From a virus (Duplodnaviria > Caudoviricetes): a stretch of DNA of 64,000 nt. A program made the translations under genes and the position numbers. Positions 622-7,806 of this stretch are shown piece after piece (position 1 is the stretch's first letter; each line of letters opens with the position of its first letter). The notes under the pieces are model-generated. The model had not been told where the DNA came from and ran no database searches. It saw nothing but the letters and a program-made list of their open reading frames with translations. The stretch is taken from positions 96,001 through 160,000 of IMG/VR virus record IMGVR_UViG_3300011868_000001. One strand, 5' to 3'.

Positions 622-1047
622 TCAGCGCACCATTTCCAGACGTTCGGCCAACAGATCACTCAGTGAGCGCATGAGTGATTCTTGCTCACGCAGCTTGAGG
701 ATGTGTGGACTGACGAGTTCGACCGAATCGAGGTAGGCGATGAGCTTGGACAGGCGATCATCCAGCTGAGCCTTTTCAGCGACCAGACGCTGGACCCAAT
801 CTGGGCAATCGGACACATCACCCATGGGCAGGTAGGCGCCTTCAAATACAGCACTGGGCGACCAGCTGATGTAACCATCGTGCTTGGGGTGGTTTGGCTG
901 CCCCCCATCGGTGTACTCAATCAGATAGCCGGTATCTTCCGGATTTTCGTCAGCCGGAATATCCCACCCGCGGTAGACATTGTAGTCACCGCGGGTCATG
1001 GGCGTTGCCTTGATGATCTTGGTACCGACATAGTGCTGCATTGACAT
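622..1047 (-). CDS. conserved phage hypothetical protein (YVGTK...GY.SWSP family) with C-terminal coiled coil
   Basis: Motifs YVGTKIIKATPMTRG, GYLIEY and GYISWSP typical of a widespread phage family; AGGAAG RBS upstream. Confidence 0.8.
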   Translation of the reverse strand: MSMQHYVGTKIIKATPMTRGDYNVYRGWDIPADENPEDTGYLIEYTDGGQPNHPKHDGYISWSPSAVFEGAYLPMGDVSDCPDWVQRLVAEKAQLDDRLSKLIAYLDSVELVSPHILKLREQESLMRSLSDLLAERLEMVR

Positions 1048-1064: not shown

Positions 1065-1785
1065 TATAGGCGGGGAGTTCTCGGTAGCCTGTCTTAAGTG
1101 CCGACGGGGAAGGCACGACAGGAACGGGTGTAGATGGGCCCTCTACCGGACCTCCCCTGTTCTGGACGTTGTGGACGGGAACCGAAACCCGTTCCTCCTC
1201 AGCAGTGCTTTCACCGCTATGCGGGCGGCTAACTCAGATGCATTGTCCAAGTAACCTTGCTGAGGCGTTCGTATGTAAACTACCACAACGAACTGGGTTG
1301 GGGAATTGCCCAGTAACGCTCACGTCACCCTAGACGACTACTTGACTGTCGGGGCGTGGATACCAGGTACAATTCCCCAAACTGGGAGGAAGGGCCGGGA
1401 CTTAGGCAGTGATACCTGGGGGAGGGTTCCTTGCCGGGCTGCTGAAGGCCCTGCAACTCACTACCCTCACCCCGGCCCTTCCAAACAGGACGGGAGAGTC
1501 GTCCGACTGGTCAAGGGGACCAATCCAGCACCAGTCATCCGATCGCCGTGACGAAATCGGTGGACGGCTCTCCCTAACTGAGACAAGTAGTCGGAGTCGA
1601 ACCGACTGGATACAGGGTATCCACAGCTACCACCCTTCCTGACCCGATGCCGACAATATGGCTCCAGGAAGCTAAGGCCGAATCTCACGGCGAGCACGGT
1701 TAAGCTGTACTTGAATTTAAACCGACTGTCGGGACGGCATCCACCTTTACCGCATGCAAGACCTGCACACGACCAACAGTCGAAA
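1065..1785 (-). ncRNA. array of structured non-coding RNA modules, or one large ornate RNA
   Basis: No credible CDS. Consecutive closing stems: 1298-1308/1370-1380 (11 bp perfect), 1388-1399/1471-1482 (12 bp perfect), 1492-1504/1562-1574, 1635-1641/1665-1671, 1723-1732/1773-1782. T-arm GTCGG-TTCGACT-CCGAC at about 1589-1607. Most G-U pairs favour the minus strand. Confidence 0.6.
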
Positions 1786-1786
1786 A

Positions 1787-1862
1787 GGGTCTCAGTGACC
1801 AGGACTCGAACCTGGGACTTGGCCTACGGCCTTTAGTTCTAACCGACTGAACTACCACTGAG
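1787..1862 (-). tRNA. tRNA-like RNA with shortened anticodon arm (pseudo-tRNA or tRNA mimic)
   Basis: Minus strand: acceptor CTCAGTGG/TCACTGAG, D-arm GTTC-AGTCGGTTA-GAAC, T-arm CCAGG-TTCGAGT-CCTGG. The central arm is only GGCC-GTA-GGCC, 3 nt shorter than canonical. The 3' end reads ACCC, not NCCA. Confidence 0.75.
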
Positions 1863-1938: not shown

Positions 1939-2397
1939 TTACTTGTCTTCACCGTCTTCGATATAGCGTTCATAGTACTCGACCAGCTTGCGGTAGGTGT
2001 AACGATCAGTCACGCCTTGCTTGATACACGCCAGAGATGAGTCACGACGAACGCCCTGCTCGAAGAGTAGGCTCTCCAAGGTATCGACAACGGTGTATGA
2101 GCGAATCCGTCCTTCACCACAGTTGACGTAGATAAGCCCCTTGTCCTTGTGCTCGTTGACAAAGTCAAAGATCTTCTTGGCCAGTTCAGGCCGCATGCAG
2201 TGGTCGCGCTCATCCTCGCTCATGTGGTCGCCAGGGAAGAAGTCAATGCGCAGCAGTGGGCGATTGTCTTTGTTCGGGATGGCGGCACCGGGACTGTACT
2301 TATCGCTGATGCTGATCAAAGGCGCATCGATCGGAATCTGACCGACTTTCTTCTTACTGATGTTGGTAAGGCGTAGGGTGGTGTTGGGCGTTATCAT
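1939..2397 (-). CDS. protein tyrosine / dual-specificity phosphatase-like protein
   Basis: CX5R loop YVNCGEGRIRS. ATG at 2397 overlaps the upstream stop (ATGA). Confidence 0.75.
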   Translation of the reverse strand: MITPNTTLRLTNISKKKVGQIPIDAPLISISDKYSPGAAIPNKDNRPLLRIDFFPGDHMSEDERDHCMRPELAKKIFDFVNEHKDKGLIYVNCGEGRIRSYTVVDTLESLLFEQGVRRDSSLACIKQGVTDRYTYRKLVEYYERYIEDGEDK

Positions 2398-2555
2398 GCC
2401 GAGGCCTTCTTGGTGAGTTGGTTGTTGGTGCGCTGCTGACGAATCTTGGCGCATTTGACATGGTTATAACGCTTATCGCAACGACGGTGACCACAGACAT
2501 CGCACAGTGCGGTCATAGGGGCGCCGAAACCATTGCTGTTAAATCCACGGGCCAT
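2394..2555 (-). CDS. small Cys/His protein (putative zinc finger), 53 aa, absent from ORF track
   Basis: Hand translation MARGFNSNGFGAPMTALCDVCGHRRCDKRYNHVKCAKIRQQRTNNQLTKKASA. GGAG RBS upstream and ATGA coupling to the phosphatase gene. Confidence 0.7.
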   Translation of the reverse strand: MARGFNSNGFGAPMTALCDVCGHRRCDKRYNHVKCAKIRQQRTNNQLTKKASA

Positions 2556-2570
2556 GCTGGACAGTTCTCC

Positions 2571-3023
2571 TTACTGGGTGGGTGCGCCTGTGGCGCAAAT
2601 GTAGTTGGCTTCAACAAAAGGTAACATCGACAAGTAGACGTACCTGATGTCGTCTTCAAAACTCAGACCGCCGTTACCGCAGCCCATGGGCGGGATGGCG
2701 ATGGTCTTGAATTTATCCGGGTGTCGATTGACCAGGTTTACCAGCTTGTTGAAGTTATGGATCACCAAGTCACGCGGTGACGGGTTGCGCCAGTTCAATT
2801 TGGTGGGCACTAAGAGGTACTTTACCCCTTCGTGCTGATACAGAATGAACTGGGTCGGATCAAGGATGGGGTACATCTTCTTGTAATGTTTGTACAAACC
2901 AGGGATGGTGTCTCGAGCCGTTTTAGCAATCCCGGCGCCCATGGCACCCACCAAATTGATGGTTATGATTACCGTGTCCGCCTCGACACTGAACAAGTCC
3001 TGCTGAACAATCTCCAGGGCCAT
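2571..3023 (-). CDS. macro domain protein (ADP-ribose binding/hydrolase, DarG/TARG1-like)
   Basis: Motifs DLF, INLVGAMGAGIA, PTK and PPMGCGNGGL. Start MALEIV at 3023 with AAGGA RBS. Confidence 0.85.
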   Translation of the reverse strand: MALEIVQQDLFSVEADTVIITINLVGAMGAGIAKTARDTIPGLYKHYKKMYPILDPTQFILYQHEGVKYLLVPTKLNWRNPSPRDLVIHNFNKLVNLVNRHPDKFKTIAIPPMGCGNGGLSFEDDIRYVYLSMLPFVEANYICATGAPTQ

Positions 3024-3058
3024 ACTGGGTATCCTTACACGGATTGCTAAGACATGTA

Positions 3059-3087
3059 GATAATGTACTGTTTCCGGCAAATCGAAT
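3059..3087 (-). promoter_or_regulatory. putative early promoter (TCGAW-N13-TACAT motif)
   Basis: Minus strand ATTCGAT-N13-TACATTAT upstream of the macro gene; one of nine copies. Confidence 0.6.
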
Positions 3088-3550: not shown

Positions 3551-5155
3551 TTACATCGCCACGCCTTCTACTTGGCTGATCTTCAGCGCGGCTAGGGTGA
3601 AAAAAACGTAGCCGATATCGATTGGGATCAGATGCGGATGGCTGGTGTCGCTGGACTCGCCTTGACAGCTCGGGCACTTGATCTTCGGCAGTGCGACGTA
3701 AGACACCGTCGACTTCTTGATCCAGTCAATGATTTCCCGATTGATCTTCTCGCTCATCTGCGGGTCTTCACTGAGCATCTCAAGGATGCGGTCCTTTTCC
3801 TCGTACCCATCATAGGTAACAGGGATGCTGTCCGGATCAACGGCGTGTTCAAACGCTGCGACCCAATGGCTGTACTGACGCAGGTTGGTCAGAGCACCCG
3901 AACGCATGATGTGTCGAACCCGATCCATCTCGTTCAGACGCGCACCAAACGCCTCGTTGGTGGCCTTGGCGATACCGTCCACCCAGATATGACCAGCGTC
4001 GATCTGCTCGGCCAGCGAGGGTACGCGCAATACCGCAGTCAGCCCCTTGCCAAGCGGCAGGCGCTTCTCGAAGAAGGTGAACTCCTTCTGGTACTCTTCC
4101 AGCCAGGCGCGGTCACGCTTGGTGGTACGCGAGGCCATCATGCGGGCTTGTTTCTCATTGATCTTCTCACGATCAACAAAGCCCATGCGTGCGAAGTTCA
4201 AGAGCAGTTCGTCGACATGACTGCACTTCTCCGGATTGGCCACGCACGGCTGACGCAGCGGATAACCATCCGGATACATGGCGCAGATCAGACCCCAGAG
4301 CACTTGCTGGTAATCGCGCGAACGAATTACCTTGAGCATCTCCTCGACAGTGTCGCCGGTTTCGAACGTGTAGTTCACCGAAACCATGTGCTCAAGCGCA
4401 AAGCGCATGTAGGTCTCGACCGTGTACACTTCGATGCTGGAGAAGACCATGCCGTTGGTCGAACGACCGAGGTTCATCTTCTCCAAACGGGTCTTCTGCT
4501 CGAAGTCCAGCAGTGCCTGTACCGTCGGTGCCCGGAAGGTGATCCACAGGCCCGTGTTCCACAGCGGAACCTGTACCATAGAACCTTGGCCGAACGAGGC
4601 ACGGATGGCCAGGACCGGGTCCTTGATGTTCTGGGTCTTGACCTTGCCCACGCCGAGCTTGGTCTCGTTGTGCAGTACGTACTGACCCCAGTTACCGGAC
4701 TTGTCGATGTTGTCGAAATACAGGTCCTGATAGATACCGGACATGGTACGGGCAAGGTTTACCAAGCGCCGCTCTTCGCGCGTCAGTTTCTCGGCCCGCT
4801 CGTCTGTCAGATCATGCAGATCACGGGATTCGAGCAACTTGGACAGTTCTTCAACACCAACCTTAAGGGCTACCAAATACGGCAGGGCAGGGTCGGTCTT
4901 CTGGCGCTTCAGGATCGGGTTGTCAGCGTTGACATGTTCATTGGGGGCGAATGCCTCATCCCACATGTCCGATGCTTCTTCCTCAGACTCCGGCTCAGCA
5001 GGCAGTTCAGCCTCACTGTTCAGTTGTTCAGCTGCCTGAAGGGTGGCCGCCTCGAAAGAAGCAGCTTGGTCGACATCTGGCACCAGCGTCGAGGAGATGT
5101 CCTCATCGATAGTGTCCATGCCCTCGTCGTGAGTATTGTTCAGTTCGTCCGTCAT
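3551..5155 (-). CDS. putative baseplate hub assembly protein (T4 gp26-like)
   Basis: 534 aa with acidic N-terminus, CVANPEKC, and C-terminal KCPSC...PIDIGYVFF resembling gp26-type proteins. Function inferred. Confidence 0.55.
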   Translation of the reverse strand: MTDELNNTHDEGMDTIDEDISSTLVPDVDQAASFEAATLQAAEQLNSEAELPAEPESEEEASDMWDEAFAPNEHVNADNPILKRQKTDPALPYLVALKVGVEELSKLLESRDLHDLTDERAEKLTREERRLVNLARTMSGIYQDLYFDNIDKSGNWGQYVLHNETKLGVGKVKTQNIKDPVLAIRASFGQGSMVQVPLWNTGLWITFRAPTVQALLDFEQKTRLEKMNLGRSTNGMVFSSIEVYTVETYMRFALEHMVSVNYTFETGDTVEEMLKVIRSRDYQQVLWGLICAMYPDGYPLRQPCVANPEKCSHVDELLLNFARMGFVDREKINEKQARMMASRTTKRDRAWLEEYQKEFTFFEKRLPLGKGLTAVLRVPSLAEQIDAGHIWVDGIAKATNEAFGARLNEMDRVRHIMRSGALTNLRQYSHWVAAFEHAVDPDSIPVTYDGYEEKDRILEMLSEDPQMSEKINREIIDWIKKSTVSYVALPKIKCPSCQGESSDTSHPHLIPIDIGYVFFTLAALKISQVEGVAM

Positions 5156-5656: not shown

Positions 5657-6490
5657 ATGTTTGAAGAACTCTCCGATATCCTGAAGGGTCGAGTCGACCC
5701 GGCCGTGTGGGTCGGTATCAATGCCATCACCTCAGCACTGGAGAAACACAGTGCGACTGTCTGGCAAGAGCGCATCATCACCTTGCGGATGGATGCAAAC
5801 AACCGCGAGATGGGGGCGGTGGTCGAAGAAGCGTTGCACATTATCTACGATCAAGTGCGCGCACTCTTGCAACAGATGCAGATCACGCTGGAACTCGATA
5901 CGCTGTCGATGGACCGCCTGGCGATGATTCTCGAGGCACTGGTATTTACCCCCAACGACTTGGACAGTGAGGCGCTGGCGGCGCTGGAAGCGGGCGAAGA
6001 TACTGTCGAAGCCTTCTGCGATGTGCTGGGTATCTACCTTAACCTCGTGCCCGAGGAACTGATGGAGTACGTCATCGATGTCTCCAATCAGGCCATCCTG
6101 GCGATCCAGGAGAAGCTTGGGCAGAACCTAAGCTATCGGGAAGAAACCGGCGAAGGCGTGGCCGAAACGGTCCGACTCCTCAATCGTCATCAGCTCTTGG
6201 TTGGCGACACACTGACAGTTGGCATGGAGTCCCTGAATCAAGGTACGGCGCCCGGCGCGGACATGACCTCGATGGTCCTGGCTAACCGCGGACGTTTGGT
6301 CGATCTGGCGCCTGATGCGCTGGCCGATGAACTGCTGTCGTTGGCGATCCTGTCCAAAACACCATACGATGCCCTGGAAGACGAAGTCATGCACTTTGTC
6401 GAAGGCATCCTCAATGACCCATTCACGATCCAGCGAGCCTTCAAGCGTATTCGTTCGCGCCTGGGTGAGTTGCCGGAGCACACGCCATGA
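5657..6490 (+). CDS. hypothetical protein (phiKZ gp79-like position)
   Basis: 277 aa, AAGGA RBS, ATGA overlap with the RNAP subunit gene. Confidence 0.75.
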   Translation: MFEELSDILKGRVDPAVWVGINAITSALEKHSATVWQERIITLRMDANNREMGAVVEEALHIIYDQVRALLQQMQITLELDTLSMDRLAMILEALVFTPNDLDSEALAALEAGEDTVEAFCDVLGIYLNLVPEELMEYVIDVSNQAILAIQEKLGQNLSYREETGEGVAETVRLLNRHQLLVGDTLTVGMESLNQGTAPGADMTSMVLANRGRLVDLAPDALADELLSLAILSKTPYDALEDEVMHFVEGILNDPFTIQRAFKRIRSRLGELPEHTP

Positions 6491-7806
6491 AAAAGCAAGA
6501 CTTTTACATTCAAGCCCTGCTCGGTGGGGCGTTCCGCCGTAAGGACTGGGTCATCAGTGCCTTCTCGGTGACGCGACCACAAGTCGATGAAGAGCACTCG
6601 CTGACCGCGTATCAGTTATACACCATCTGTTACAACCGTGATTCGACAGAAGTCTATGTTCCCACCTTAGGCGGAGATGAGTGGGTCACCATTGAAGACA
6701 GCCCGCCGATGCAGCAGTTGTTCTTCCCCGGTGATCCGTTGACGGTGACGCCGGAGATGATCCCCAATTGCAAAGAGCCGGTTGAATCGACCTATGGCGA
6801 CCTGCTGTTTAACTGGATTGCGTTGGTGGAACCGTTTGGCGAACGGATTGACTATCAGGTCGGTCCCGTCAACATCCGTAAGATCGAGCGCATCATTGCG
6901 ACAAAGCTGGTTGATGATCCGGAAATCTCCGGCCGTGAACTGGCGCCTGATGAAATCCCGATCAAGATGTACATGCGCTACGGGCGCTGCATGGGAGCGT
7001 TGGCGGGATTCACCCAGGTCTTCGTTCCTACACTGAGTCCTAAGGCGCTGACTACCGATCCTCGAGTGCGCACTGTACGTGATGAACTGCTCGAGAAGAA
7101 CAAAGAACGCTTACATGACCCAGTGGTCGTGGCCGGCATCCAGAACGAGTTGATTGCCATCGACAAAGAATGGATCAAAGACGATCCGTCTGAAGGCTTT
7201 CTGATCTCGAACAAGACCTTCGGCACGGCACGTAAGCGGATGTTCCTGATTCATGGTCCAGAAGCAGGCTTTAATGAAGGCGGTAACGCAGAGCTTGTAG
7301 TCAACAGCCTCAATGAAGGTTGGGACACAGACAAGCTGGTGGCGATGTTCAACTCCACTCGAGCCGGTTCGTTCTACCGTGGTGCATTGACGGCCTTGGG
7401 TGGTGAGGCGGTGAAGTTCTTCATGCGCGTCTTCCAGAACACCGCCGTTGGGGAAGAGGATTGCGGATCAACCCTGGGCATCGAACGGATCGTTGAACCG
7501 GGGCAATCGGATTACTACGTCGGACTGTGGGAAATCAAGTCGGACAAGACCAGTCAAGTGATCACCCCTGAGCGAGCCAAGGCACTGGAAGGCAAGAAGT
7601 TCATGAGCCGGTCTCCGCTGTTCTGCAAGACAGGAGCAACCGATTTCTGTGAACGTTGCGTCGGACAAGCACTGGCTGCTATCCCATACGCCCTGGGTGC
7701 TGAGAACGTCTCGGTCGCCTCGAAGTTCATGGACATCATGATGGCCTCGGCACACGCCAAGGAACTCAAGACGGCCAAACTCAATATCCATGAAGCCTTT
7801 ACCTAA
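6487..7806 (+). CDS. virion RNA polymerase beta-prime subunit fragment (phiKZ gp80-like)
   Basis: Beta-prime Zn-site pattern DCGS...RSPLFC...FCERCVG and bridge-helix-like SRAGSFYRGALTALGG; position after the helicase block. Confidence 0.8.
   Translation: MKKQDFYIQALLGGAFRRKDWVISAFSVTRPQVDEEHSLTAYQLYTICYNRDSTEVYVPTLGGDEWVTIEDSPPMQQLFFPGDPLTVTPEMIPNCKEPVESTYGDLLFNWIALVEPFGERIDYQVGPVNIRKIERIIATKLVDDPEISGRELAPDEIPIKMYMRYGRCMGALAGFTQVFVPTLSPKALTTDPRVRTVRDELLEKNKERLHDPVVVAGIQNELIAIDKEWIKDDPSEGFLISNKTFGTARKRMFLIHGPEAGFNEGGNAELVVNSLNEGWDTDKLVAMFNSTRAGSFYRGALTALGGEAVKFFMRVFQNTAVGEEDCGSTLGIERIVEPGQSDYYVGLWEIKSDKTSQVITPERAKALEGKKFMSRSPLFCKTGATDFCERCVGQALAAIPYALGAENVSVASKFMDIMMASAHAKELKTAKLNIHEAFT

Follow-up and report, generated by a model that had tools for sequence, protein, structure and literature searches.

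Non-decoding RNAs with the shape of tRNA are a kind already known. Phage T4 has two stable RNAs of unknown function, species 1 and 2 (rnaC and rnaD), which are encoded and matured with its tRNA cluster, and the tRNA genes of phages are now explained in part as countermeasures against tRNA-destroying enzymes of the host. In vertebrates, mascRNA is a tRNA-shaped RNA cut from the longer MALAT1 transcript by RNase P, RNase Z and the CCA-adding enzyme. The YrlA/Y RNAs (RF02553) mimic the T arm, D arm and acceptor of tRNA and carry tRNA modifications; they can be cleaved by RNase P, can receive CCA and occur in phages (Chen et al. 2014, PMC4201824). Some phage tRNAs evade tRNA-targeting defences because their anticodon stem or loop is altered such that host nucleases do not cut it (PMC10264068), and for P2-OLD, which amputates the anticodon arm, a shorter anticodon stem is reported to lower cleavage (PMC12445682). 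A phage tRNA body conserved without its decoding arm would extend the picture of countermeasures from replacement tRNAs to pure mimics.

Here we describe a candidate for such a body in the window, by which we mean the whole 64,000-nucleotide stretch analysed, bases 96001–160000 of a 253,747-bp IMG/VR virus record with an estimated completeness of 96%. The sole cultured relative of this jumbo phage is Pseudomonas phage pPa_SNUABM_DT01 (265 kb; DT01 below). We give about an even chance to the reading that the element is a selected, tRNA-derived, non-decoding RNA, that is, a mimic of the tRNA body, which would be matured by host enzymes and act in trans as an accessory RNA. The case is a modest one, as the family has few members and the unit is missing from most relatives.

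Like mascRNA, the element is tRNA-shaped, non-decoding and embedded in a longer noncoding RNA, from which it is predicted to be processed; it differs from mascRNA in being bacterial-viral, in lying at the 5′ end of an array and not at the 3′ end of a long RNA, and in having a fully canonical D arm and elbow. It resembles T4 species 1 and 2 in being a small structured RNA of a phage, and it differs from them in having a near-complete tRNA body with a mini-hairpin, in a phage that itself lacks any true tRNA. In YrlA, the RNA ends form the Ro60-binding stem at the place of the anticodon arm, whereas the ends of the phage element lie in the acceptor stem. We rejected a YrlA/Y RNA identity on this feature, on the absence of PF05731 (TROVE/Ro60) from the 254-kb genome and on the absence of an RF02553 match. 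The defence-evading phage tRNAs still decode and replace host tRNA that has been cut, but a non-decoding element could act only as a competitor. By the tests run, the mimic belongs to none of these classes.

Anatomy of the element and of the array behind it

The element lies in an 891-nt stretch (1048–1938) that holds no credible ORF and is flanked on both sides by minus-strand genes; an exact-protein look-up of the two window proteins flanking the array gave no record. In the order of the minus strand, the features are these.

1939–2454, minus strand: phosphatase-like gene (171 aa), with the annotation tyrosine phosphatase for its counterpart in DT01 and a CX5R motif in the orthologue of the related record L003
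1902–1936, minus strand: promoter-like motif, CGTAAAAAAGTAC, a 14-nt spacer and TATGCGAC, directly after the phosphatase stop codon
1877–1901, minus strand: leader hairpin with a 9-bp stem and a 7-nt loop, separated by 15 nt from the tRNA-like element that follows (folds)
1861–1791, minus strand: tRNA-like RNA of 71 nt (Rfam RF00005 at 41.2 bits; cloverleaf as minimum free energy fold; covariation against the related record L002)
1722–1783, minus strand: long hairpin, the next array unit (folds; 8 of 20 pairs compensatory across six relatives)
1584–1713, minus strand: second tRNA-related unit of 130 nt (folds, T-arm motif)
1072–1574, minus strand: rest of the array, five stem-closed domains reaching to the ribosome-binding site of the gene at 622–1047 (domain parse)
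622–1047, minus strand: downstream gene (141 aa) with a crAss001_48/Sequestin-type domain

The array thus runs from the leader hairpin through the tRNA-like unit, the long hairpin and the 130-nt T-arm unit to the five stem-closed domains, which were parsed by folding with a span limit of 140 nt. The whole 891-nt region folds with z = -7.2 against shuffles, and in its distal 540 nt, 36 of 155 consensus pairs are compensatory in comparison with L002 and L003. The tip of the long hairpin is deleted in L003 and in Logan run X1. In the second unit, the closing stem of 6 bp stacks on a T arm of canonical form (GUCGG / UUCGACU / CCGAC); a nested domain of about 70 nt takes the place of the D arm, and there is a 6-bp hairpin whose triloop differs in L003. 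This unit occurs in the window, L003, L023 and L032 and is missing from L002. Two of the four canonical T-arm motifs of the 254-kb genome fall within the array. From one or two units (DT01, L025–L028), the arrays of the relatives range up to about eight. An Rfam scan of 950–2300 with E up to 10 gave, beyond RF00005, noise only (plastid and miRNA models, and tRNA-Sec, to which the second unit scores 20 bits). The mimic marks the start of a long structured-RNA array without an Rfam match, in a jumbo phage related to DT01. In DT01, the phosphatase gene is followed by an unannotated structured RNA homologous to the last domain of the array (L022 553–810; MW735835.1 169652–169909).

The tRNA-like element parses as follows.

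1861–1855, minus strand: 5′ strand of the 7-bp acceptor stem
1854–1853, minus strand: U8 and A9
1852–1836, minus strand: D arm with a 4-bp stem and a 9-nt loop containing A14, G15, G18 G19 and A21
1835, minus strand: U26
1834–1821, minus strand: collapsed anticodon arm, unpaired AAA (1834–1832) and GGCC-GUA-GGCC (1831–1821), read directly and folded
1820–1816, minus strand: 5-nt variable loop AAGUC, with G46 and C48
1815–1799, minus strand: T arm CCAGG / UUCGAGU / CCUGG of 5 bp, closed by G53–C61
1798–1792, minus strand: 3′ strand of the acceptor stem
1791, minus strand: discriminator G
1790–1787, minus strand: 3′ tail ACCC, followed by a U run; CCA is not encoded

A preliminary description, made from the letters alone, had placed a tRNA at 1787–1862. 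The element is indeed there, but on the minus strand and with bounds of 1861–1791, the former interval containing one extra 5′ base and the ACCC tail. The minus-strand parse bears out the elbow parts that it had called canonical (TA at 8–9, GG in the D-loop and a TTCGAGT T-loop), and its 4-bp anticodon stem with a GTA triloop is what we read, with the unpaired AAA in addition; the lack of an encoded CCA likewise stands, as ACCC follows the helix in the window. The L-shape core of decoding tRNAs is complete, comprising the 7-bp acceptor, U8, A14, G18G19, a G15–C48-type pair, G53–C61 and a T54-Psi55-C56-type loop.

The match to RF00005 runs from end to end and, at 41.2 bits (E = 2.7e-5 in the 64-kb window, 2.5e-8 in the whole genome), is beyond chance; the curated gathering threshold is 29 bits. 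It is the sole tRNA-like match in the 254-kb phage genome. The cloverleaf is the minimum free energy fold (z = -3.6 against shuffles). True tRNAs of related phages (the tRNA-Gly, tRNA-Asn and tRNA-Asp of L029 and the tRNA-Asn and tRNA-Asp of DT01) share the genomic neighbourhood and the promoter-like motif with the mimic, whose D arm is of the tRNA-Asp type. They differ from it in scoring 66–72 bits, in having anticodon arms of 5 bp and 7 nt and in encoding CCA. The window element scores about 28 bits lower, a deficit that corresponds to the cost expected from the loss of the anticodon arm alone.

With 14 nt in place of 17, the collapsed arm has a 4-bp stem and a GUA triloop; of a decoding arm it has neither the 5-bp stem nor the loop of 7 nt, and U33, the three anticodon letters and the purine of position 37 are likewise lacking. 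The element cannot decode. That it is nevertheless a working tRNA with an unusual anticodon arm, such as a tRNA-Ala(GGC), we regard as extremely improbable. ARAGORN does give a tRNA-Ala(GGC) at 1788–1862 when run at a 90% threshold, but at default settings it calls no tRNA at the locus or anywhere in the phage genome. The alanine model needs a weak 3-bp D stem in place of the perfect 4-bp stem, puts A33 and C37 around the anticodon, leaves a mismatch in the 4-bp anticodon stem, and is without G3:U70, the identity pair of alanine; moreover, L002 cannot form it, ARAGORN reporting a 2-base "anticodon" for that version. A tRNA-like domain of tmRNA was also considered and rejected: the 3:70 pair is A-U or C-G instead of G3:U70, and ARAGORN finds no tmRNA.

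Conservation of the shape in a diverged version

Orthologous loci were gathered through homologues of the phosphatase gene. The related phage record L002, whose phosphatase is 84% identical, carries the tRNA-like element 80 nt after the phosphatase gene. Its version is about 10% diverged from that of the window and scores 42.5 bits, so that both lineages exceed the RF00005 threshold. Its anticodon arm has the same AAA and GGCC stem as the window, with a UGCG tetraloop (UNCG-type on a C-G pair) and one extra A. Because this derived arm is common to both versions, its collapse predates the split between them.

The substitutions between the two versions maintain the fold. In the acceptor stem, pair 3:70 changes from A-U in the window to C-G in L002, 7:66 from G-U to G-C and 1:72 from U-A to U-G; all four stem substitutions keep pairing, one pair (3:70) having changed on both sides. 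The remaining differences are at D-loop position 17, at T-loop position 59, in the mini-loop and at the discriminator; those in the loops fall at positions known to vary, and the mini-loop changes from GUA to UGCG while the stem of the mini-hairpin is untouched. No tertiary-core residue differs. The spacers adjoining the element are less conserved than the element itself. The covariation thus rests on two diverged sequence versions, with one double and two wobble changes. In addition, Logan contigs X1 (goat gut) and X3 (wastewater) cover the element without indels, with C17 to U as the sole listed change and at most one unlisted substitution per contig possible. The presence of the element in L002 and in these two further assemblies rules out both an assembly error and a recent deletion. 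An X10 contig that matches 1800–1855 with insertions in the anticodon region was set aside as an ordinary tRNA of another organism.

These comparisons bear on the possibility that the element is a decaying pseudogene, namely a former tRNA that has lost its anticodon arm and all function and is being deleted lineage by lineage. There are only two sequence versions, which leaves room for this explanation. However, about 10% divergence has accumulated after the collapse without a pair-breaking change and with one compensatory double change; the tertiary core is unchanged, and the stem of the mini-hairpin has been kept while its loop was rewritten. The pairing-blind changes and disrupted copies that mark tRNA pseudogenes are not seen in this small sample. 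By a rough hand estimate made without a tool, the probability that all four stem changes would pair under neutrality is well below 1%. We therefore consider decay unlikely. Instead, the comparison as aligned shows a tRNA body that lacks decoding capacity and appears to be under purifying selection for its shape. The preference of the preliminary description for selective retention of the tRNA body over random decay is accordingly upheld by an arm common to two lineages about 10% apart, by stem changes that pair and by an unchanged core. The alternative it had named, a recent deletion or an assembly error, did not hold up at the orthologous loci, where the collapse is old in L002 and X1 and X3 agree.

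Two features of this comparison count against a mimic. The discriminator is G in the window and A in L002, and the register of the 3′ tail also differs between the versions, the L002 tail reading A-CCC-A before turning U-rich. The difference in the discriminator argues against a conserved charging identity.

Contents of the slot among related phages

The place between the leader hairpin and the next array unit is filled differently among the relatives.

tRNA-like unit: the window, L002, X1 and X3 (four sources)
empty, the next hairpin following directly: L023, L024, L032–L039 and an X10 contig (11 contigs)
172-aa ORF of PHROG 2586: L003, L040, L041 and X8 (four contigs)
true tRNA-Gly(UCC) of 71 bits with CCA, followed by an ORF, tRNA-Asn and tRNA-Asp: L029 (phosphatase 51% identical)

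The slot of the X10 contig has 75 other letters in place of 159. The tRNA-like unit is bounded by short TTTCG-like repeats. DT01 has tRNA-Asn and tRNA-Asp 1.7 kb downstream. Judged by these contents, the clade uses this slot for tRNAs, and the mimic is an optional occupant. A normal tRNA at this place in relatives, which had been raised as a point against selective retention, is thus found in one distant relative, but the tRNA-Gly(UCC) of L029 is not recognisably the same gene as the tRNA-like element.

Several of these observations would suit a pseudogene. A true tRNA sits in the slot of a distant relative, with tRNA-Asn and tRNA-Asp nearby in related phages; most close relatives appear to have lost the unit by clean deletion between the TTTCG-like repeats; and the unit sits at a recombination junction. 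At this junction, nucleotide identity between the window and L023 is 68.5% in the phosphatase gene and rises to 98.5% in the array and 95.5% in the downstream gene, a mosaic that indicates either recent recombination at the slot or an unusual constraint on the array. Most close relatives lack the unit, as would also be expected of a gene that is being lost, and this likewise counts against a mimic. It is the maintenance of pairing described above that sets these observations in another light, and we read a unit that comes and goes among close relatives, with its shape conserved wherever it is present, as an accessory trans-acting RNA.

The slot contents also bear on a second explanation, in which the element is a cis-acting module for processing or stability and the released tRNA-like piece is only a by-product. 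A cut by RNase P on the 5′ side of the element would set the 3′ end of the phosphatase/macro-domain mRNA, with the leader hairpin protecting that end, and the 3′ cut would free the array. The position suits such a module, as the element follows by 15 nt a conserved hairpin behind the upstream gene and directly precedes the next stem-closed unit. So do the short spacers after several array units, which are C-rich, then A/U and then GUU or U-rich and resemble the 3′ trailers of bacterial tRNAs; moreover, the MALAT1/mascRNA system uses tRNA-like elements in this way. The leader hairpin, however, is present both with and without the tRNA-like unit, being found in all recovered loci except the distant L025–L030 and DT01; in the alignment with L002 and L023, both strands of its stem have changed and the pairing has been preserved. 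Eleven related contigs keep hairpin and array without the unit and four hold the ORF instead, so that the unit is dispensable in 15 and the flanking transcripts do not need it. Because the empty-slot relatives retain hairpin and array, the unit is also not needed for the processing of its neighbours, and its absence from most close relatives marks it as accessory and not as an essential processing signal. In addition, RNase P would need no more than a minihelix of acceptor and T arm, but the D arm has been kept, as have G46 and C48. This retention of the full elbow and core, beyond the minihelix, favours a trans-acting mimic over a bare cut site, and a purely cis-acting module, though plausible, seems to us unlikely.

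Further tRNA-like and coding sequences were noted in these loci. The PHROG 2586 ORF of L003 (4635–5153), which lies exactly at the place of the tRNA-like unit, has by eye a Walker A-like GKST and a Walker B-like VDD. In DT01, an unannotated degenerate tRNA-like sequence of 23 bits follows tRNA-Asp and a small ORF and ends in AACCCA (L022 2663–2737; MW735835.1 171762–171836). L030 carries at 4145–4225, directly after tRNA-Tyr, an 81-nt tRNA-like sequence (Rfam 46.6 bits) with a C-CCA end and an anticodon arm whose loop is enlarged to about 15 nt. ARAGORN makes no call for it, and it is another non-decoding look-alike in the clade.

Proposed maturation and partners of the putative mimic

On the reading as a trans-acting mimic, transcription of the minus strand would start from the promoter-like motif about 45 nt upstream, and the element would follow behind the leader hairpin as the first array unit. 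Host RNase P would be expected to cut its 5′ end because the stack of acceptor and T arm is kept, together with the D/T elbow and the residues of the tertiary core; the stack and the elbow are also the substrate features of mascRNA-like or t-element processing signals. Host 3′ trimming enzymes would stop at the C-rich ACC(C) tail, which the host CCA-adding enzyme could complete. The released RNA would be L-shaped, about 72–75 nt long and invisible to readers of the anticodon loop, but it would remain a substrate for enzymes whose recognition is confined to the half with acceptor and T arm. Some details count against this route: RNase P prefers G-C at pair 1:72, where the two versions have U-A and U-G, the base at N-1 is C, and the window copy is able to form an 8-bp acceptor. 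If RNase P does excise the unit, it would represent a natural, compact tRNA punctuation in a phage transcript, and it would also offer a convenient handle on how such RNA arrays mature.

The partner would be a factor that recognises the tRNA body, most plausibly a nuclease or transferase of the host that acts on tRNA, or else an enzyme of tRNA handling. Searches of the 254-kb phage genome for a CCA-adding enzyme (PF01743), Tpt1 (PF01885), an Rnl2-type RNA ligase (PF09414) and Ro60 (PF05731) found none, and the absence of these partner genes is a further point against a mimic. By analogy, a decoy for host factors that bind the tRNA body is plausible, as it fits the accessory pattern, the neighbouring macro-domain and phosphatase genes and recent work on tRNA-targeting defences. 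In an extended form of this proposal, which we consider rather unlikely, the element would be one of a phage panel of non-decoding tRNA-body RNAs that serve as competitive decoys against host immunity, kept beside the macro-domain and CX5R phosphatase genes in a counter-defence islet whose units are swapped by recombination as hosts change; its targets would be nucleases and nucleotidyl- or ADP-ribosyl-transferases that recognise the acceptor or elbow, and enzymes that cut the tRNA tail.

Further copies and a parent were sought at several distances. In the phage collection, blastn searches with the locus, for near and for distant matches, gave nothing except a coding piece of DT01. IMG/VR was scanned with GGTTAGAACTAAAGGCC, which found only the record of L002 and one chance coding match, with the array motif, which found only the known relatives, and with a gapped D-end/T-arm pattern, which again found only the record of L002. 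In metagenomes, the matches to the gapped pattern were all normal tRNA genes from unrelated organisms, for tRNA-Ile(UAU) and tRNA-CAU, and a scan at the protein level gave no relative. The array has no similarity at the DNA level to L005 and L006, which are distantly related through the downstream gene. Outside the anticodon arm, the nearest tRNAs are the tRNA-Asn of DT01 (43/56 positions) and an unrelated tRNA-CAU (44/56), and the best match in E. coli is to the D arm of tRNA-Asp (E = 6); none of these marks out a parent isoacceptor. We found nothing specific in the literature on jumbo-phage tRNA-like RNAs, on phage tRNA-mimic decoys or on T4 species 1 and 2.

The promoter-like motif is present in the window, L002, L003, L023, L032–L039, L025–L029 (in L029 ahead of the true tRNA-Gly) and DT01, and all recovered loci have CGTAAAAAAKTAC, about 13 nt and TATG after the phosphatase stop codon. 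A scan for sigma-70 promoters and intrinsic terminators found nothing at the locus. Four copies of its relaxed form, AAAANTAC-N8-16-TATG, are present genome-wide, against a chance expectation that we estimate at about one per genome; all four are on the minus strand, each ahead of an open frame as judged from the flanking sequence, the three others being at genome positions 19934, 96004 and 225596. We infer a promoter function for the conserved motif, and the combination of an A-run, NTAC, about 13 nt and TATG may define a phage-specific promoter class. The DT01 counterpart of the window gene at 6487–7806 is annotated as an RNA polymerase beta/beta′ subunit.

Upstream of the array, at 1939–3080 on the minus strand, the phosphatase-like gene is co-oriented with a gene that matches PHROG 335 ("phosphatase") and, weakly, the Macro domain (E = 0.0018). 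From these matches, the two genes may form a modification-eraser or counter-defence pair.
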